A stretch of 64,000 nt of DNA from Candidatus Azobacteroides sp. (GCA_021201815.1 JAJQEC010000056.1:5926-69925), one strand, 5' to 3'. Numbered from the stretch's first letter, positions 54,068 through 64,000 are shown. Translations and numbers: made by a program. Notes: generated by a model not told the origin, from the letters alone.

Positions 54068-55399
54068 TTACTGATTAGATTTGATTTTTGTCTGTTTTTC
54101 TTCTGTATATTTTTTAGGATATTGGAAAATAATAGCAGCAATAGCAGCTAATCCAATTAAAAACGAATAATAAAGGTAAGGAATGATTTCTACAGGATTA
54201 ATTCCCGCAATACCGGAAGCAATTAATAACTGGGCTCCGTAGGGGATTATTCCCTGTGTAAAACAAGAAAAAGTATCCAGCAGACTGGCTGTCCGTCGTC
54301 TGTCTATATGAAATTTATCACTTATATCTTTTGCGATAGGCCCGGTAATAATGAGTGCAATGGTATTATTAGCAGTGCACAGGTTTGTAAAACAGGTTAA
54401 TGCTGCAATACTTCCTTCTGCTTTTCGTTTCGATTTTACTTTCTTTGTCAGTTTTTCAATCAACCAGTTAATTCCTCCGTTATACCGGATTACTTCAAAC
54501 AAACCACCGGCCATCAGAGAAACAATAATCAGTTCCCCCATATCATTTATAATTCCTCTGTTAGCTGCTTCCATCCAATTCCAAACAGTAAAATCGGTAC
54601 TTAATAGTCCGATTATCCCGGATAAAAGAACTCCCAGAAGAAGTACTACCACTACGTTTATTCCCATCAGGGCAGTTGCTAATACAACAATATAAGGGAT
54701 AACTTTTATCCAGGCTATTTCGGAATGACTGATTTCTCCGGTTAATCCATATCCCTGATATATATAGATAAGGGTTACCAGAATAGCAACAGGAAGTACA
54801 ATGCGAACATTTACTTTGAACTTATCTTTCATTTTTATTTCCTGAGTCCTTGTGGCAACAATTGTTGTATCGGAAATAAAAGACAGGTTATCACCGAACA
54901 TTGCTCCTCCTATCACAATGGCAACCATAGCGGCAAGATGTATATCAATCTGAGAAGAAATACCTGCAGCAATCGGAGTTAGGGCTGCAATAGTTCCGGT
55001 AGAAGTACCCATAGCCATTGAAATAAAGCACGCTGCTATAAATATACTGGCGGGAATCATATTTTGAGGCAGTAAATACAATATCATATTTACTGTTGCA
55101 TCTACAGCGCCCATTGCCTTTGCCGTTCCGGCAAAAGCTCCGGCAAGGATGAAAATAACAATCATCAACATGATGGTATTGTTAGCCGCTCCTTTGCAGA
55201 AAATATTTATACGGGTAGATATTTTTCCCCGGGAAAGAAGAATCGCAGTTACTGAAGTTAATAAAAAGGAAATTGAAACCGGGATCTTACTCAAATCTCC
55301 TGTAAGAAAATAGGTGACAATATATAACAAAAAGAACACACATAATGGAATCAAAGCCCGGAAATCAGCTTTTGGTAAGTTATCGTTTTTAATATCCAT
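54068..55399 (-). CDS. Na+/H+ antiporter NhaC family protein
   Basis: Polytopic 443-aa membrane protein. The NhaC-type blocks were recognised by eye only. Confidence 0.8.
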   Translation of the reverse strand: MDIKNDNLPKADFRALIPLCVFFLLYIVTYFLTGDLSKIPVSISFLLTSVTAILLSRGKISTRINIFCKGAANNTIMLMIVIFILAGAFAGTAKAMGAVDATVNMILYLLPQNMIPASIFIAACFISMAMGTSTGTIAALTPIAAGISSQIDIHLAAMVAIVIGGAMFGDNLSFISDTTIVATRTQEIKMKDKFKVNVRIVLPVAILVTLIYIYQGYGLTGEISHSEIAWIKVIPYIVVLATALMGINVVVVLLLGVLLSGIIGLLSTDFTVWNWMEAANRGIINDMGELIIVSLMAGGLFEVIRYNGGINWLIEKLTKKVKSKRKAEGSIAALTCFTNLCTANNTIALIITGPIAKDISDKFHIDRRRTASLLDTFSCFTQGIIPYGAQLLIASGIAGINPVEIIPYLYYSFLIGLAAIAAIIFQYPKKYTEEKQTKIKSNQ

Positions 55400-55570
55400 C
55401 TGTTTTTTATTTACTCTTATCTCTAGTCTGAGTATGTATAAAATTAATATCTTGCAAAATTATAACAATTCAGGAAATACAACTATCAAATAAGAACTTT
55501 GAATTTAAATTTTCTATACAATAGGTAGTTTGTAAACTCAAAAAGAAACGGAAGAATTAAAGAGAAAGAT

Positions 55571-55642
55571 ATTTAAACTAGTATAAAAAGAAACTCTGCT
55601 GAATATTTTTTCAGCAGAGTTTCTTTTTATACTAGTTTAAAT
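55571..55642 (-). terminator. perfect 33-bp-stem hairpin (72 nt) abutting the DUF1015 stop codon
   Basis: The left arm ATTTAAACTAGTATAAAAAGAAACTCTGCTGAA (55571-55603) is the exact reverse complement of the right arm at 55610-55642. The loop is tatttt. Confidence 0.7.
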
Positions 55643-56886
55643 TATATCAGTTTATGAATTACTAATCCTGATCTTAATTTGGGTTCAAACCATGTTGTTT
55701 TCGGAGGCATGATATTGCCGGTATCCGCAATATCGATTAACTGCTTCATGGAAACCGGATAAAGAGCAAAAGCAACTTTCATTTCTCCACTATCCACCCG
55801 TTTTTTTAATTCTTCCAGTCCACGGATTCCACCTACAAAATCCACCCTTTTATCTGTTCTGAGATCTTTGATTCCCAGAATTTCATCCAGAATAAGAGTA
55901 GAAGAAATTGTTACATCCAGAATTCCGATAGGATCATTGTCATTGTAGGTACCCGGTTTTGCAGTTAAAGAGTACCATTTTCCGGATAAATACATAGAGA
56001 AATTATGTAATTTTTCCGGATTATAAATTTCCGTACCTTTTTCTTCGACAATAAAATTTTTACTCAGTTTCTGTAAAAATGTATCTTCATCTAATCCATT
56101 CAGGTCCTTCACTACCCGATTATAATCAATAATTTGCAGTTGATTATCCGGGAAACAAACTGCCAGAAAGTAATTGTATTCTTCCTCACCTGTATGGTTG
56201 GGATTTTGTTTTGCTTTTTCAGCTCCTACCAATGCTGCTGCTGCTGTCCGGTGATGACCATCGGCTATATAAAGAAAAGGCATGGAAGCAAATAATTCCG
56301 TAATACGATTAATTGTTGTTTCATCTTCTATCAGCCAGAAATGATGTCCGAAGCCATCCGGTGCCGTGAAATCATATTCCGGTTGATTTTGAGTCACTGA
56401 AACAAGAATCTCGTCCAACTCTTTTTGTGCGGGATAAGCAAAAAATACCGGTTCAATATTTGCATTATTAATGCGGACATGCTTCATCCGGTCCTCTTCT
56501 TTGTCCTTGCGGGTTAACTCGTGCTTTTTAATAACCCCATTCAAATAATCATCCACATTAGCACAAACGACAAATCCATATTGTGTACGTCCGTTCATCG
56601 TTTGGGCATATACATAATATAGTTCTTTTTCGTCTTGTTTCAGCCAGCCTTTTTCCTGAAATGACAGAAAATTTTCTACAGCCTTTTCATATACTTCCGG
56701 AGCATGCTCATCTGTGCCAGGAGGAAAATCTATTTCAGGCTTAATAATATGATATAATGATTTTGCATTTCCTTTGGCCTCTTCCCTCGCTTCTTCCGAA
56801 TTCAATACATCATAAGGACGGGAAGCAACTTGTTCCACTAATTCTTTAGGAGGACGAATGCCTTTGAAAGGTTTAATCTTTGCCAT
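55642..56886 (-). CDS. DUF1015 domain-containing protein
   Basis: N-terminus MAKIKPFKGIRPPKELVEQVASRPYDVL and the block YIADGHHR. Length 414 aa. It is adjacent to serA and serC. Confidence 0.8.
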   Translation of the reverse strand: MAKIKPFKGIRPPKELVEQVASRPYDVLNSEEAREEAKGNAKSLYHIIKPEIDFPPGTDEHAPEVYEKAVENFLSFQEKGWLKQDEKELYYVYAQTMNGRTQYGFVVCANVDDYLNGVIKKHELTRKDKEEDRMKHVRINNANIEPVFFAYPAQKELDEILVSVTQNQPEYDFTAPDGFGHHFWLIEDETTINRITELFASMPFLYIADGHHRTAAAALVGAEKAKQNPNHTGEEEYNYFLAVCFPDNQLQIIDYNRVVKDLNGLDEDTFLQKLSKNFIVEEKGTEIYNPEKLHNFSMYLSGKWYSLTAKPGTYNDNDPIGILDVTISSTLILDEILGIKDLRTDKRVDFVGGIRGLEELKKRVDSGEMKVAFALYPVSMKQLIDIADTGNIMPPKTTWFEPKLRSGLVIHKLI

Positions 56887-56974
56887 ACGTATTTATTTAA
56901 AATAAAAAGGTGAAAAGTAAAAAGTATAACAATACATTTCCTTTTACTTTATACCTTTCGCCTGCTACTTTTTA

Positions 56975-57895
56975 TTATTTGTTTACTCTGAATTTTTCGT
57001 TGCCGTTTTTAAGAAAATCAACAATCTGATTGGCAGCAGCTATCCCGGCGTTACTATTGGCTTCAGCAGTTTGTGCTCCCATTTTTTTCGGAGTAGAGAA
57101 ATATCTGTCCGGAAATTTTTCCTGCATTTCTGTATTATTAGCAGGAGGAATATCCGTAAGATATTTAAAGTCAGTCCTTTCTTCCATGAAAGATACCATT
57201 TCTGCTTCATTAATCACTTCTTTGCGTGCAGTATTAATCAGTACGCTTTTTGCTGGTAAGTTACTTAACAATATTTTATTGATAGATTGCTTTGTTTCAG
57301 AAGTCGCAGGAATGTGAAGAGAAATAAACTGACAGGTAGAATACAACTCCTCTACAGAACTTACGGCTTTCACACCTTCTGATTCTATCTTATCAGCAGA
57401 CAAAAAAGGATCGTATGCATACACTTCCATACCAAAACCCTTTGCAATTCTGGCAACGTTTCTTCCTACATTTCCATACGCATGAATTCCAAGTTTTTTT
57501 CCAAGTAACTCAGAGCCGGATGTTCCGTTGAAGAAATTGCGGACAGCATATACCATCAACCCAAGGGCAAGTTCAGCTACCGCATTTGCATTCTGTCCGG
57601 GTGTATTCATAACACAAACATTTTTAGCAGTAGCCGCTTCCAGATCGACATTATCATATCCGGCTCCTGCTCTGACAACTATTTTCAGATTATCGGAAGC
57701 ATCTATCACTTCTTTATCGATAATATCACTCCGTATAATTACAGCATCAGCTGTTTTTACAGCTTCTATTAACTGTGATTTCTCGGTATATTTTTCAAGT
57801 AGTGCTAATTCATATCCGGCTTTTTCGATCACATCTCTGATACCTTTTACAGCTTCCGGAGCAAAAGGTTTGTCGGTTGCTACTAAAACTTTCAT
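56975..57895 (-). CDS. serA: D-3-phosphoglycerate dehydrogenase-like 2-hydroxyacid dehydrogenase
   Basis: NAD-binding motif GIHAYGNVGRNVA and the catalytic region of D-isomer-specific dehydrogenases. It sits next to serC. Confidence 0.8.
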   Translation of the reverse strand: MKVLVATDKPFAPEAVKGIRDVIEKAGYELALLEKYTEKSQLIEAVKTADAVIIRSDIIDKEVIDASDNLKIVVRAGAGYDNVDLEAATAKNVCVMNTPGQNANAVAELALGLMVYAVRNFFNGTSGSELLGKKLGIHAYGNVGRNVARIAKGFGMEVYAYDPFLSADKIESEGVKAVSSVEELYSTCQFISLHIPATSETKQSINKILLSNLPAKSVLINTARKEVINEAEMVSFMEERTDFKYLTDIPPANNTEMQEKFPDRYFSTPKKMGAQTAEANSNAGIAAANQIVDFLKNGNEKFRVNK

Positions 57896-58019
57896 GTTAT
57901 TTTGTTTTTATAATAAATGTTTTTCCAGGAATTTTTCAGATTAACCTATAAATAAACAATACATCATTTTAGAAGATGAAATACTAAAATGATGTATTGA
58001 AAATAGTTATAAAAAAGAA

Positions 58020-59087
58020 TTAATGAGCCTTTTCGAATTCTTTCATTACATCAACCAGAGCCTGTACACTTTCTATTTTCATGGCATTATAAATAGAAGC
58101 TCTGAAACCACCCACCGAACGGTGACCTTTGATGCCAACCATACCTTTCGAGGTAGCGAATTTAGCAAACTCATCTTCCAGATCTTTGTATTCGTCATTC
58201 ATTACGAAGCAGACATTCATTACAGAACGATCTTCAACAGCAGCAGTACCTTTAAATAACTTGTTGCGGTCTATTTCATTATATAATAAAGTAGCTTTTG
58301 CTTCATTTAACTTTTGAATAGCTTCAATACCTCCGAGTTGTTTGTAATACCGCAATGTTTGTAATGCGGCATATACCGACACACAAGGAGGTGTATTGAA
58401 CATACTTTCCTTTTTGATATGAGTGCGGTAATCCAGCATAGTCGGAATCTGGCGGGATACTTTTCCCAATGCATCTATTTTTGCAATAATGATAGTTACT
58501 CCGGCTGGTGCCAGGTTTTTTTGTGCACCTGCATAAATTAAGTCATATTTTGAAACATCTATCGGACGGGAAAAAATATCGGATGACATGTCACTTACCA
58601 ACGGTACATTTACATCCGGATCATTTTTTATTTGCGTTCCGAAAATAGTATTGTTGGAAGTAAAATGGAAATAATCGGCGTCTGACGGTACTTCGTAATT
58701 TTTTGGAATAAAGTTATAATTGCTTTCTTTTGAAGAAGCTACCACATCTACTTCACCAAAAAGCTTTGCCTCTTTGATCGCATTTGAAGCCCAGGTCCCG
58801 GTATCGAGGTATGCTGCTTTTTTTTCCAGTAAGTTGTAAGGAGCCATACAAAATTGTAAGCTTGCTCCGCCACCCATGAAAATAACATCATAACCTTCCG
58901 GTACATTCAGGAGTTCTTTTGTCAAAGCACGTGCTTCTTCCATTACAGCAATGAATTCTTTGCTTCTGTGCGATACTTCCATCAATGATAAACCGGTTCC
59001 TGCAAAATCAAGGATTGCGTCAGCGGTATTTTTGATGGTGTATTGGCTCATAATAGAAGGGCCAGCGTAAAAATTATGCTTCTTCAT
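58020..59087 (-). CDS. serC: 3-phosphoserine/phosphohydroxythreonine aminotransferase
   Basis: N-terminus [11 protein letters not shown] and the PLP-lysine block [14 protein letters not shown]. Length 355 aa. Confidence 0.92.
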
Positions 59088-59314: not shown

Positions 59315-59347
59315 ATGGAAAATTAAAGGAAGTAAGATGTCTTCCTT
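59315..59347 (-). terminator. weak hairpin terminator after the HKD gene
   Basis: Stem aaggaag (59326-59332) / cttcctt (59341-59347) overlapping the stop codon. On the minus strand it is followed by TTTAATTTT. Confidence 0.4.
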
Positions 59348-59870
59348 ATTTAATTCTGTCTCCACAAAATTGTTTTCTTTTACATGTTGTACAGAATTTC
59401 CCTATCCAGATATCGTCAAATTGGTTCACAGCATTTTCCACCAACAGGGAATCGGAAGAAAGAATACCGGATTCAAAATTCCGGTTGTCTTTGCTTTTCA
59501 TACCTATTCCCGCCCCGGTTAAGTTTGCGGAACCTATATACACGGTTTGAAGGTCAAAAAGAAAAATCTTAAAATGAACGCGTGGGCATAAAGTACGTTC
59601 CAGCCTTTCCGCCAGAATGGGATATTTATCGAAATCTCTCCTGAAATTCGGTCCTGGTTCCTTCGCATGCATTAGTCTTATTTCTACTCCCCGGTAAAGA
59701 AGGTCTGAGAGAATTTTAAGAAAAGAAACGGAACTATCGGTGTTTTTCATATACACATCTTTAATATCTGCTGTCCCGATCCATAAAACCTTTTGTACTT
59801 TTTTTATTTTTTCAAGCACTAAGGTATAATGTTCTTCATTAGAAATGTAAATTGTTTTTTTATCCGTCAT
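59346..59870 (-). CDS. minimal single-HKD phospholipase D superfamily protein (Nuc-like nuclease candidate)
   Basis: Complete HxKx4Dx6GSxN motif HFKIFLFDLQTVYIGSAN (residues 99-116, nt 59523-59576). 174 aa. C-terminal cysteine cluster CTTCKRKQFC. Confidence 0.8.
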   Translation of the reverse strand: MTDKKTIYISNEEHYTLVLEKIKKVQKVLWIGTADIKDVYMKNTDSSVSFLKILSDLLYRGVEIRLMHAKEPGPNFRRDFDKYPILAERLERTLCPRVHFKIFLFDLQTVYIGSANLTGAGIGMKSKDNRNFESGILSSDSLLVENAVNQFDDIWIGKFCTTCKRKQFCGDRIK

Positions 59871-60119: not shown

Positions 60120-61169
60120 ATGGAATATGAACGTTTAAGAAATAAATTAAAAACAGTTACGGTTTCTGCACCCTGGAATACCACGCCGAAAGAAATTGTC
60201 CATTTGGCCGGATGGAGTCGTAGAAGCTGGCATCTGATTGAAGATATTGAATTCTTACTGGCGGAATATGACCTGGTATCTTACCCTGCTTTTTCCAATA
60301 CCTATTCAAATGGACAAATTGTGATCAGTAAAAAAACGGAAGAGGCTGAAAATATAAAAGTGAATGATACCCATCCTTTGGTGTGCCATATCAATGAAAG
60401 AGGCATTTCCAGTTGTGATCCTATTCCGAGGTTAAGCCGGCTACGTTCTGCCAATTTACGTTCTATGGAAGACAGAAATCACACTGCTCTTGTATCCATT
60501 AATCGGGAAGCAACCATTGAAGAAGCCATAACCCTGATGATAAAGTTTAATTATTCCCAACTTCCCATTATGAATGGAAACAGAAAAGTAGAAGGATTGG
60601 TAAGCTGGAAATCAATAGGGAAAGCCAAATGTTTAGGGAAAAACCTTATGCGGGTGTATGATTGCCGGGAGGAAGTAGAAATCGTAAGTATTAATACTCC
60701 GTTGCTGGAGGTTGTGGAAAAAGTATTGAAAAAAGAAGTAATATTAGTAAGGGACACCGATGAAGTCATTTGTGGAATCATTACAGCCACGGATATTACA
60801 GAGCAATTTCTTACGCAGGCAGAACCTTTTTTCCTGATTGAACAGATTGAAAAGTTACTGCGCATTATCCTGATGCGTTCTTCTGTTTCCATAGAGGAAA
60901 TGAAATCTTTGCTGGACCCGGAGAAACTGGACAAAGAAATAAGAGGAGTTTCTGATTTTACTTTCGGACAGTATTTATTGATCCTGGAAAATGAAAATAT
61001 GTTCCTGAAAATGAATTTGACTGCCTGCAGGATAAGGTTGCTGGAGTATTTAAGGAAAATTAATGAGATCAGAAATGATGTCATGCATTTCAACGTAGAT
61101 GAAACATCAGAAGAAGATGTCCGGCATTTGAGGGAAACTCTTCATCTATTATCAGAGATAATGGGATAA
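60120..61169 (+). CDS. N-terminal unknown domain + CBS pair + C-terminal HEPN-like domain (Rx4H)
   Basis: The CBS pair spans roughly residues 115-230 (ATIEEAITLMIKFNYSQLPIMNGNRKVEGLVS...NTPLLEVVEKVLKKEVILVRDTDEVICGIITATDI). The all-helical C-terminus FFLIEQIEKLLRIIL...FTFGQYLLIL...LEYLRKINEIRNDVMHF carries R318-N-D-V-M-H323 (nt 61071-61088). Start taken at ATG 60120, because the track start at 60081 is TTG. Confidence 0.7.
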   Translation: MEYERLRNKLKTVTVSAPWNTTPKEIVHLAGWSRRSWHLIEDIEFLLAEYDLVSYPAFSNTYSNGQIVISKKTEEAENIKVNDTHPLVCHINERGISSCDPIPRLSRLRSANLRSMEDRNHTALVSINREATIEEAITLMIKFNYSQLPIMNGNRKVEGLVSWKSIGKAKCLGKNLMRVYDCREEVEIVSINTPLLEVVEKVLKKEVILVRDTDEVICGIITATDITEQFLTQAEPFFLIEQIEKLLRIILMRSSVSIEEMKSLLDPEKLDKEIRGVSDFTFGQYLLILENENMFLKMNLTACRIRLLEYLRKINEIRNDVMHFNVDETSEEDVRHLRETLHLLSEIMG

Positions 61170-61309
61170 ATGAATCTTTTTATTTTTCGTATCTACTTGT
61201 GAATGTGACTTTTCTACTTTTATCTCTTTTGAAAAATATTTATTAACTATTCAGAATTATTATTACAAGAACAAATTCATTTTCTTTGTACTGTAAAATT
61301 TTATATCCT

Positions 61310-61927
61310 ATGGAAGAATTTTTGAATGAAGGACAAGATCCTAAAACGATAGAGAAAATATATCATCGTCTGGAAGACTTATTACTTCCGGAAGAACACT
61401 TGCTATATATTGCTGTTCAGAAAAAACCGGCTGTGACTATTTCTCCCAACAGTGTAGCGCTAACGGACCGGCGACTCATTCTTTTTAAATCAAAAAGCCT
61501 GGGATTATTAATGGATTTTGAAGAATATCTGTGGTCTACTATTTTTAATTTTACTATAAAAGAAACAATTTTCGGTGCGGATTTTACTTTTAAAACTACC
61601 TACGGACTGGAAATTAAAGTAGATTATTTACCAAAAGCTCAGGCAAGAAAGTTATACCAAATTTCCCAACAGCAGAAAATAAACCGGGAAGAAGCCGAAG
61701 AACCAGTACAAAATCCGACTTCCATAACTGAAAAGGAAGAACCATTATCTGAGTCAGTCTCTCCACAGGAAAAAATAATAGAAGAAATTAAGAATCCTGA
61801 AATTGAGGAAGCGCACGAAGAAGACCTGATGAAAGCTTTGCAGAAACTAAAAACGCTTTTAGACAATGGACTTATTACCCAACAGGATTATGACGAGAAA
61901 AAAGCCGAAATTTTATCGCAATTGTAG
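61310..61927 (+). CDS. bacterial PH (bPH, YokE-like) domain + acidic linker + SHOCT domain protein
   Basis: bPH pattern LLPEEHLLYIAV...VALTDRRLILFKSKSLG...FNFTIKETIFGADFTFKT. C-terminal SHOCT pattern LQKLKTLLDNGLITQQDYDEKKAEIL. Start taken at ATG 61310. Confidence 0.7.
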   Translation: MEEFLNEGQDPKTIEKIYHRLEDLLLPEEHLLYIAVQKKPAVTISPNSVALTDRRLILFKSKSLGLLMDFEEYLWSTIFNFTIKETIFGADFTFKTTYGLEIKVDYLPKAQARKLYQISQQQKINREEAEEPVQNPTSITEKEEPLSESVSPQEKIIEEIKNPEIEEAHEEDLMKALQKLKTLLDNGLITQQDYDEKKAEILSQL

Positions 61928-62630: not shown

Positions 62631-64000
62631 TTATTTTTTCCAGAAGCCGGGGAGGAAGATTATTAAAAGGGTGAATAATTCCAGCCTTCCTACGATCATA
62701 TCAAAACACAACACCCATTTTGCAAAAACCGGAAGAGAAGCATAAGACCCGGAAGGACCGGTTTGGCCTAAACCCGGACCGGTATTTCCCACACAGGAAA
62801 TGACAGAGCCAATTGACTCTTCAAAACCAACACCGGAAATGGTAAGAAGAAGGGTACTTATGACAAGAACTCCTACATATACCAGAGCAAAAATCATCAC
62901 ATTTTCCATTACATCCTGAGGAATAACAATTTTATTAATCCTTACCGGTAAGATAGCACGAGGATGAATCTGACGGTTAAATTCATTTAAAATATTCTTT
63001 ACCAATGTTCCGGAACGTACTATTTTCATCCCTCCACTCGTAGAACCGGCACAGGCACCGGAAACCATCAACATTAACATTAAAATCCAGAAAAATGGTC
63101 CCCAGGAGATGTAATCGGATGTAGAAAAGCCTGAAGAAGTAATAATGGAGGTGACCTGAAAAAAAGAATCCCGAAAAGTGTTTTCTATATTTCCACTTTC
63201 TATTGGCTGAGAAATAAGTAGACCCATAAATACCACAAAGGTAAATCCTCCTATAGTCCAGATATACCATTTAAACTCATCATCCTGTTTCATGCGTTTA
63301 AAATCCATGTGAAAAGCATGGTAGATAATGATAAAGTTGGTACCACCCAGAAACATAAAGGCAATAAGAATATACTCGATATAAGCAGAATCCCAGAACA
63401 AAATGCTTTCCTGTTTGGTAGAAAATCCACCTGTTGACACAGTTGTCAGGGAGTGACAAACCGCATCAAAGAATTCCATTGGACCCAACCATAATAAGAG
63501 AAAAAGAATAAAAGTCAGTCCTAAATAAATAAGCCATAATTGTTGTGCTGTCTCTTTTATTCGAGGGCGTATTTTTTCATAAGTGATTCCCGGAACTTCA
63601 GCTCTGTAAAGATGCATTCCACTTCCTCCGAAGAAAGGTAAAAGGACTAAAGTAACGACAATAATACCAATTCCTCCCAGCCATTGAAGAATACTTCTCC
63701 AGAACAGTAAACTTTTAGGCAAAAATTCAATGTTGTCAAGCACGGAAGCACCGGTAGTTGTAAAACCGGAAATTACTTCGAAATAAGCATTTGTAAAATC
63801 AGGAATATAATTGCTCAGATAAAAAGGCAGTAAACCGAAAAAAGAAAAAATAATCCAGATAGTCGCTACAATAAAGAAGGATTCCCTCCTACCCGCTTCT
63901 TCACTGGCTTTTTTCCCTATCAGGAAAAATACAAGTCCGGTTCCGGCCGTAATTCCGATAGACAACAAAAAAGTTTGCCAGATAGGTTCTTTGTAAATCC
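62631..64000 (-). CDS. trkH: TrkH-family potassium uptake protein (partial, N-terminus beyond window end)
   Basis: Polytopic membrane protein with repeated TrkH blocks (GFTTTGASV, TTVSTGGFST, ITSSGFST, GNTGPGLG). The frame stays open upstream of the track's TTG start through position 64000. Confidence 0.88.
   Translation of the reverse strand, partial: IYKEPIWQTFLLSIGITAGTGLVFFLIGKKASEEAGRRESFFIVATIWIIFSFFGLLPFYLSNYIPDFTNAYFEVISGFTTTGASVLDNIEFLPKSLLFWRSILQWLGGIGIIVVTLVLLPFFGGSGMHLYRAEVPGITYEKIRPRIKETAQQLWLIYLGLTFILFLLLWLGPMEFFDAVCHSLTTVSTGGFSTKQESILFWDSAYIEYILIAFMFLGGTNFIIIYHAFHMDFKRMKQDDEFKWYIWTIGGFTFVVFMGLLISQPIESGNIENTFRDSFFQVTSIITSSGFSTSDYISWGPFFWILMLMLMVSGACAGSTSGGMKIVRSGTLVKNILNEFNRQIHPRAILPVRINKIVIPQDVMENVMIFALVYVGVLVISTLLLTISGVGFEESIGSVISCVGNTGPGLGQTGPSGSYASLPVFAKWVLCFDMIVGRLELFTLLIIFLPGFWKK

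Follow-up and report, generated by a model that had tools for sequence, protein, structure and literature searches.

The window, by which we mean the whole stretch of 64,000 nucleotides of Candidatus Azobacteroides sp. DNA that was analysed, carries on its plus strand a genuine open reading frame at 60120-61169 that encodes 349 residues plus a stop. An identical protein of 349 residues (P0001) is present at NCBI from a Candidatus Azobacteroides MAG, on 3 contigs. A TTG codon 39 nt upstream would extend the protein by 13 residues. Two observations favour the ATG at 60120 as the start: P0001 is also 349 residues long, and the homologues begin at the same alignment column.

Two small genes lie close to the reading frame. 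One is divergent and located on the minus strand (59346-59870); it encodes a PLD-like protein of 174 residues with a single HKD (PLDc_2, 5.9e-12) and weak DrmC-type matches in PADLOC. The other, on the plus strand (61286-61927), encodes bPH_3 and SHOCT domains according to its domain annotation. Further out, serC, serA and a DUF1015 gene follow in one direction and trkH in the other, and the arrangement recurs in an independent assembly. The gene is thus surrounded by housekeeping genes (serA, serC, trkH), with no mobile-element gene nearby, and the GC content across 54-64 kb is flat (0.30-0.40), giving no signal of horizontal transfer. A promoter scan returned fewer sigma-70-like sites than the shuffled expectation. 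The Bacteroidetes -7 motif TAnnTTTG was not enriched in the window (86 found vs 90 expected), and none was found on the plus strand upstream of the gene.

The whole AF2 model, computed from a 46-sequence alignment, had a mean pLDDT of 90.4 and a pTM of 0.77. The predicted parts were an N-terminal α/β domain (residues 1-77), a linker (residues 78-100), a CBS pair (about residues 122-222) and a set of C-terminal helices (residues 223-348). The linker, set at residues 79-99 (60354-60416) from pLDDT and alignment, was modelled with low confidence, the pLDDT being 52-66 and falling below 50 at residues 80-85, and varies among the homologues in both length and sequence. Among 46 homologues of 30-64% identity, 21 positions were invariant: R35, M140, S146, Q147, P149, W163, G167, G219, T222, D225, F237, I243, E244, R248, F282, G283, Y285, R318, N319, H323 and F324. 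A Foldseek comparison of the whole model with the viral structures of BFVD found one giant-virus CBS protein and no counterpart of the N-terminal or HEPN domain.

The CBS pair and the C-terminal domain

The sequence-only reading had proposed two CBS-like repeats and had named profile-HMM significance as a check. Both were borne out. The Pfam CBS model (PF00571) matched two stretches of the protein with an E-value of 1.2e-14 and 54.8 bits, above the cutoff of 24, the best stretch being residues 123-166, and it matched all 46 homologues tested. The CBS pair, or Bateman module, was assigned to residues 100-222 (60417-60785) from Pfam, Foldseek and the invariant positions. When the whole model was compared with the PDB by Foldseek, 326 structures matched at E<=1e-3; all of the 50 that were listed are solved CBS pairs with an rmsd of about 2-3 Å, and isolated CBS-domain entries gave target-normalised TM scores of 0.53-0.77. 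The hits listed include CorC/CNNM, OpuCA, DarB/CbpB and MJ0100, and several of the matched structures were solved with bound AMP, ATP, SAM or c-di-AMP. The window protein shares the Bateman-module fold with CbpB/DarB, OpuCA and CorC/CNNM, proteins that bind AMP, ATP or c-di-AMP. What these regulate is transporters or Rel, whereas in the window protein it would be a fused nuclease. The NCBIfam CbpB model matched at 2.9e-8, far below its cutoff.

In the alignments, S146-Q147-x-P149, W163, G219 and T222 are invariant positions of the CBS pair. An aromatic residue occupies position 145 in 115 of 116 sequences (F in 74, Y in 41). G219 and T222 are present in all 116, and D225 in 115 of them. The motif G-h-h-T/S-x-x-D/N is the ribose-binding motif of CBS domains. 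The stretch G219-I-I-T222-A-T-D225 of the second CBS repeat (60774-60794, reading GIITATD) fits this motif, which suggests one canonical adenosine site per protomer.

The C-terminal domain (residues 223-349, 60786-61166) was assigned from the AF2 model, HEPN hallmarks and weak profile matches. HEPN domains are defined by an R-x4-6-H motif in which the arginine is followed by a polar residue, N, D or H, and by an E-x3-[KR] motif upstream (PMC3710099). All of these hallmarks are present. The auxiliary motif is E244-K-L-L-R248 (60849-60863, reading EKLLR), and the R-x4-H motif is R318-N-D-V-M-H323 (61071-61088), with the polar N319 after the arginine. The codons at 61071-61088 read RNDVMH, confirming the residue positions that had been given for R318 and H323. 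The motif had been described as lying near the start of the last long helix, and this part did not hold. The AF2 model has helices at residues 304-322 and 331-348, the latter the last, joined by a loop at residues 323-330. R318-N319-x3-H323 is at the end of the penultimate long helix, entering the loop before the last one; this corresponds to the end of core helix 3 and the loop to helix 4, the canonical HEPN site. Conservation of R318 and H323, which had been named as a check, was nearly complete: R318, N319 and H323 occur in 115 of 116 homologous sequences, the remaining one being gapped there, and all three, with F324, are invariant in the 46 homologues. E244 and R248 are present in 116 of 116.

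The comparison of folds gave a less definite result. Structure prediction followed by Foldseek, as the earlier reading had advised, recovered CBS pairs for the whole protein and, for the C-terminal domain, HEPN proteins as the best superpositions at levels short of significance. The domain-only AF2 model (residues 223-349) had a pLDDT of 90.3 and a pTM of 0.83. Against the PDB, HEPN proteins superposed on it with TMq 0.41-0.49 and rmsd 4.5-8.4 Å, all with E>0.4 and a probability of at most 0.41. The best were Gifsy-1 HepS (9oij), Thermus thermophilus Csm6 (8jbb/5fsh), PbAbiF (8vz6), 1wwp and SO_3166 (5yep), none of them significant. Rows with nominally better E-values were unrelated helical bundles with an rmsd of 13-18 Å. 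A profile of the C-terminal alignment found no match among PDB sequences even at E<=10, and the window protein itself did not reach significance with the Pfam HEPN models. Within the family, HEPN_Swt1 gave weak matches in 10 of 46 members (best E=0.004), and the PADLOC CARF_HEPN model gave weak matches in 16 of 46; Csx1, Csm6 and Cas13a models were matched as well. The weak PADLOC matches of the window protein were solely to the HEPN-bearing Cas13a and CARF_HEPN models. The C-terminal domain is predicted to be helical and carries the sequence hallmarks of HEPN, and its similarity to the HEPN fold is suggestive, not significant; the hallmarks are clearer than the Foldseek evidence.

Relation to DS-11 and to other sensor-HEPN proteins

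The sole strong match of the protein in NCBIfam was to NF053863.1, the DS11_antiphage equivalog, described as "CBS domain-containing anti-phage protein". The match had an E-value of 1.4e-89, its 300.2 bits exceeding the curated cutoff of 260, and residues 25-344 aligned with model positions 2-305 of 305, the full length of the model. DS-11 is a single-protein CBS and HEPN phage-defence system reported by DeWeirdt et al. with DefensePredictor (bioRxiv 10.1101/2025.01.08.631726; Science 2026, PMC13092281). The supplement gives the protein as WP_000257686.1, of 365 residues (PMC13092281), and the exact protein was found in E. coli KE47 (NZ_CP141089.1) at L081:7491-8588. Phage protection was shown for E. 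coli DS-11 only, where one cloned gene suffices (PMC13092281). E. coli DS-11 itself matches nothing in PADLOC 2023, a release without a DS-11 model.

BLASTP aligned residues 99-333 of the window protein with E. coli DS-11 at 34% identity (E=1e-43) and left the two N-termini unaligned; the overall identity in the 116-sequence alignment is about 28%. For each of the three domains an HMM was made from the family sequences, with the window protein included and E. coli DS-11 left out. E. coli DS-11 matched the N-domain HMM at 8.6e-22 (residues 5-75), the CBS-pair HMM at 5.5e-38 (residues 122-235) and the HEPN HMM at 9.3e-52 (residues 236-361), and the three domains are collinear with those of the window protein. 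Residues Y157, R330 and H335 of E. coli DS-11 align with Y145 (60552-60554), R318 and H323. The substitutions Y157A, R330A and H335A each abolish defence (PMC13092281, including Table S11), and in the published AlphaFold3 dimer with ATP (ipTM 0.59) Y157 is predicted to lie against the adenine (PMC13092281). The HHpred table of the same paper assigns residues 252-359 of E. coli DS-11 to HEPN_Swt1 with a probability of 0.98 (PMC13092281). At the level of sequence, membership of the window gene in the DS-11 family is established by three independent routes.

The window protein resembles E. coli DS-11 in the order of N-terminal domain, CBS pair and HEPN domain and in being encoded by a single gene without a conserved partner. 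It differs in a shorter linker between the N-terminal domain and the CBS pair and in its host, which belongs to the Bacteroidales and not to the Enterobacteria.

CBS-HEPN and CBS-HD-HEPN fusions were noted in 2013 by Anantharaman et al., for example Pelobacter propionicus gi 118580987 and alr3009 (PMC3710099). Set beside these by description, the window protein shares with this Swt1/Abi2-like HEPN assemblage a CBS region fused to an active-type R-x4-6-H HEPN domain and the predicted link between nucleotide sensing and RNA degradation (PMC3710099). The affinity of DS-11 by Pfam and HHpred is likewise to HEPN_Swt1. Unlike some of the 2013 fusions, the window protein has no HD phosphohydrolase domain.

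The earlier comparison with the ancillary RNases of type III CRISPR-Cas was partly upheld. As in Csm6 and Csx1, a ligand-sensing domain precedes a C-terminal HEPN domain that is predicted to act as a dimeric RNase; the R-x4-H helix weakly matches the CARF_HEPN, Csx1 and Csm6 models, and T. thermophilus Csm6 is among the best-superposing structures (TMq 0.46-0.49, not significant). The sensor-plus-HEPN logic therefore stands. The part of the analogy that failed is the signal, there being no signal-making enzyme linked in cis. Unlike Csm6 and Csx1, the window protein has an extra N-terminal domain and, as had been anticipated, a CBS pair in place of CARF: Pfam and Foldseek identify CBS, and the PADLOC CARF_HEPN match spans just residues 304-338, the HEPN helix. 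It is not a member of the Csm6/Csx1 family.

The N-terminal domain, of about 78 residues with elements in the order H-E-H-H-E-E (60120-60353), was delimited from AF2, conservation and a domain profile, and its pLDDT is about 87-95 over residues 1-70. R35 (60222-60224), within a G-x-x-R-R-[GS] loop, is an invariant position of the domain, as is L47. This region had been described as matching nothing recognisable, and the searches agreed: there was no Pfam match in this part of the window protein, and the N-domain profile found chance-level matches alone among PDB sequences (CodY, uL30m; E about 1). The secondary-structure elements of the model follow one another as in a winged helix, and this order at most suggests a winged-helix fold.

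The N-domain profile (residues 1-78) was also searched against 1.84 billion representative proteins and returned 1380 matches at E<=1e-3, 679 of them at E<=1e-10. Architectures were classified with local domain HMMs for 144 new proteins among the best 150 of the 1380 matches. Of these 144, 41 had the N-CBS-HEPN architecture and 18 a tandem duplication, N-N-CBS-HEPN; many were fragments, and at least 6 were long proteins with two N-domains without CBS or HEPN. In two proteins (P0129 and P0147) a pair of N-domains is fused to TerB (Pfam E=8e-15 and 5e-17). In P0152 the fusion partner of the pair is a MIT_C PLD-like domain (E=1.3e-44), which is also recognised by the C-terminal portion of the PADLOC BrxL model (E=1.2e-40), and in P0148, P0228 and P0249 the pair is C-terminal in otherwise unannotated proteins. 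The N-domain is a portable conserved module of about 75 residues common to DS-11, TerB and PLD-like fusions. It is not discussed in the DS-11 paper (PMC13092281).

Genomic setting and alternative explanations

Relatives of the protein were present in at least 497 genomes in a scan of one genome per species, and the phyla include Bacteroidota, Acidobacteriota, Planctomycetota, Chloroflexota, Proteobacteria and Verrucomicrobiota, with others. The distribution is patchy; DS-11 occurs in 129 of 5426 complete E. coli genomes (about 2.4%). The E. coli DS-11 locus adjoins a recombinase fragment and an IS3 remnant, whereas the chromosomal context of the window copy is free of integrase or IS remnants. 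Gene context differs even in the closest relative (L001).

At 81 homologue loci, tblastn with the window neighbours gave one weak match to the PLD-like protein and none to the bPH-SHOCT protein. When 660 neighbour ORFs within ±6 kb of these loci were clustered all-against-all, no family was present in more than 3 loci. A multi-gene system was rejected on these grounds. Among the 81 loci no signal-making enzyme is conserved in cis; DS-11 differs in this respect from Csm6/Cas10, CBASS, Pycsar and Thoeris. A link to Cas10 and cOA was likewise not seen, as there was no conserved neighbour in the 81 loci and the families met most often beside the homologues do not include cas genes. The commonest immediate-neighbour families of the homologues are of defence type (ResIII 5, SWI2/SNF2 4, Eco57I 3). 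Other neighbour families are type I restriction-modification genes and methylases, GmrSD, TIR and BrxL, and PADLOC applied to the neighbours adds PbeA, type I methyltransferases and PDC candidate systems.

The possibility was considered that the protein is a housekeeping or stress RNase whose CBS pair reads the adenylate energy charge (AMP/ADP/ATP) or SAM and tunes bulk RNA stability, with no specific phage role in this host. Adenylates are common ligands of CBS pairs, AMP, ATP, SAM or c-di-AMP is bound by the best structural matches, and such a reading was proposed for CBS-HEPN fusions by Anantharaman et al. in 2013 (PMC3710099). The position of the window copy between serC and trkH in DNA of flat GC would be in keeping with it, and, with no synthase for a signal linked to the gene, an ordinary metabolite could serve as ligand. 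However, the E. coli orthologue protects against phage (PMC13092281), the gene is accessory, being found in only a small share of complete E. coli genomes, its context changes even in the closest relative, and restriction, TIR and BREX genes are enriched next to the homologues. We regard this explanation as unlikely, and sensing of energy charge and phage defence are not mutually exclusive.

It is much less probable that the protein is the toxin of a toxin-antitoxin-like pair, in which the HEPN RNase would be restrained by the PLD-like or the bPH-SHOCT neighbour and not by a small ligand. Many HEPN proteins are indeed toxins paired with MNT or other antitoxins (PMC3710099), and two small genes closely flank the reading frame, but neither of them recurs at the homologue loci, no neighbour family is shared by more than 3 of these 81 loci, and E. 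coli DS-11 works as a single cloned gene (PMC13092281). Least credible of all is a C-terminal helical bundle that lacks catalytic activity and serves only to dimerise or to bind RNA, making the protein a regulator and not a nuclease: the Foldseek and PDB profile searches and the Pfam HEPN models would allow it, in that none gave the window protein a significant HEPN match, but R-x4-H (R, N and H) and E-x3-R are near-invariant in 116 sequences from many phyla, as expected of a catalytic site, E. coli DS-11 loses defence through either R330A or H335A, and this orthologue has an HHpred probability of 0.98 to HEPN_Swt1 (PMC13092281).

Proposed mechanism and significance

We place a probability of about 85% on the reading that the window gene belongs to the DS-11 family and encodes a stand-alone, single-protein anti-phage system, a putative ligand-gated HEPN RNase. 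The sequence-only reading had reached a CBS sensor fused to HEPN as a ligand-gated RNase, and it agrees with what was found, as the equivalog cutoff was passed, published DS-11 is described in this way and the residues essential for defence are kept. The idea was right, yet already published: the fusions were flagged in 2013 (PMC3710099) and DS-11 was validated in 2025/2026 (PMC13092281).

In a DS-11 protein of this kind, the CBS pair would bind an adenine-containing ligand, with Y145 stacking on the base and the G219-x-x-T222-x-x-D225 strand holding the ribose. Ligand binding would change the packing of the two protomers. As is general for HEPN domains, dimerisation would form a composite active site, a view that the published AF3 dimer supports, and the change in packing would assemble or release that site, made up of R318, N319 and H323 with E244 and R248 assisting. 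The HEPN domain would then cut RNA without metal ions, and the cleavage would stop translation, arrest growth and block phage replication, probably by sacrificing the infected cell. For the conserved N-terminal domain, additional sensing or targeting is the most likely role. For the DS-11 family as a whole, we infer that the protein is an RNase, that it is gated through its dimer, what its ligand is and that infection is abortive. That the Bacteroidales copy defends its own host is an extrapolation, as it shares only about 28% overall identity with the validated protein.

With no synthase linked in cis, general metabolism or the phage is the probable source of the signal. E. coli K-12 has, to our knowledge, no diadenylate cyclase. 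Since DS-11 works in that strain, c-di-AMP is unlikely as the universal ligand. A further, tentative possibility, which we consider less likely than not, is that DS-11 proteins are two-input devices in which the N-domain acts as an undescribed portable sensor of phage or nucleic acid while the CBS pair reads an adenine nucleotide. With the same reserve, that nucleotide may be the product of no cis-linked enzyme, the candidates being the Ap4A alarmone, the ATP/AMP balance or a phage-derived nucleotide.

The window gene adds no new principle; the family to which it recognisably belongs is already published and curated. What is added beyond the DS-11 paper is that the N-domain is conserved, is duplicated in longer variants and is fused elsewhere to TerB or MIT_C. 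The annotation "CBS domain-containing protein" can become DS-11-type anti-phage protein, and a system validated in E. coli is extended by homology to the Bacteroidales, including a Candidatus Azobacteroides MAG. The absence of a cis-linked synthase and the N-domain as a portable module are useful by-products, and both narrow further testing. If the two-input reading were true, DS-11 would be an immune effector under the control of a general metabolite of the cell and not of a dedicated second messenger.

Genes around DS-11 in the window

The DS-11 gene is one of three small genes placed between flanking housekeeping genes (54068-59087 and 62631-63968). These comprise a 443-aa ORF for a membrane protein without annotation, a DUF1015 gene, and genes for a 2-hydroxyacid (phosphoglycerate-type) dehydrogenase, for a class-V aminotransferase resembling serC, and for TrkH. 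The GC content of the DS-11 region is flat, at 0.30-0.40, and no integrase, transposase or tRNA was found around the three small genes.

The first of these genes (59346-59870, minus strand) is transcribed divergently from DS-11 and encodes a single-HKD, PLD-like protein of 174 aa (PLDc_2, E=5.9e-12). Its PADLOC matches were weak (~5e-5), to the PLD domains of DrmC, MkoB and DpdK. Such a gene is not conserved in the neighbourhood of DS-11 homologues, and the PLD-like gene is therefore probably independent of DS-11. Directly downstream of DS-11 lies a gene (61286-61927, plus strand) for a protein that combines a bacterial PH domain (bPH_3, 8.2e-15) with SHOCT (9e-9), the middle part of which is acidic and of low complexity. 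Conservation of this gene beside DS-11 was not found outside the window.

The validated E. coli locus

In E. coli KE47 (NZ_CP141089.1, 3326000-3342000; locus L081), the validated DS-11 gene adjoins a tyrosine recombinase that is truncated, genes for hypothetical proteins, and the remnant of an IS3 element, with ypjA upstream. The E. coli system was found in 129 of 5426 complete E. coli genomes and was chromosomal in every case. The RefSeq annotation of the validated protein is still only 'CBS domain-containing protein'.

The N-terminal domain and longer variants

The N-terminal domain of DS-11 (aa 1-78; 60120-60353) matched nothing in Pfam or the PDB, and it is not discussed in the paper describing DS-11 (PMC13092281). 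A profile of the domain matched 1380 representative proteins, and relatives P0121-P0264 were among the best 150 of these. Within the same 150, longer DS-11 variants carry the domain as a tandem duplicate, with the architecture N-N-CBS-HEPN. The metagenomic P0159, a long variant of 694 aa with additional N-domain copies, has the divergent HEPN motif EIRRGVAHH instead of EIRNDVMHF; the R-x4-H spacing is retained and the polar N following R is substituted. This protein is possibly a DS-11 copy that has shifted in function or is decaying.

The N-terminal domain is a portable module. Also among the best 150 of the 1380 matches, two copies are fused to TerB in P0129 and P0147, two copies are joined to a MIT_C/BrxL-type PLD-like domain in P0152, and a pair stands at the C-terminus of the unannotated proteins P0148, P0228 and P0249.
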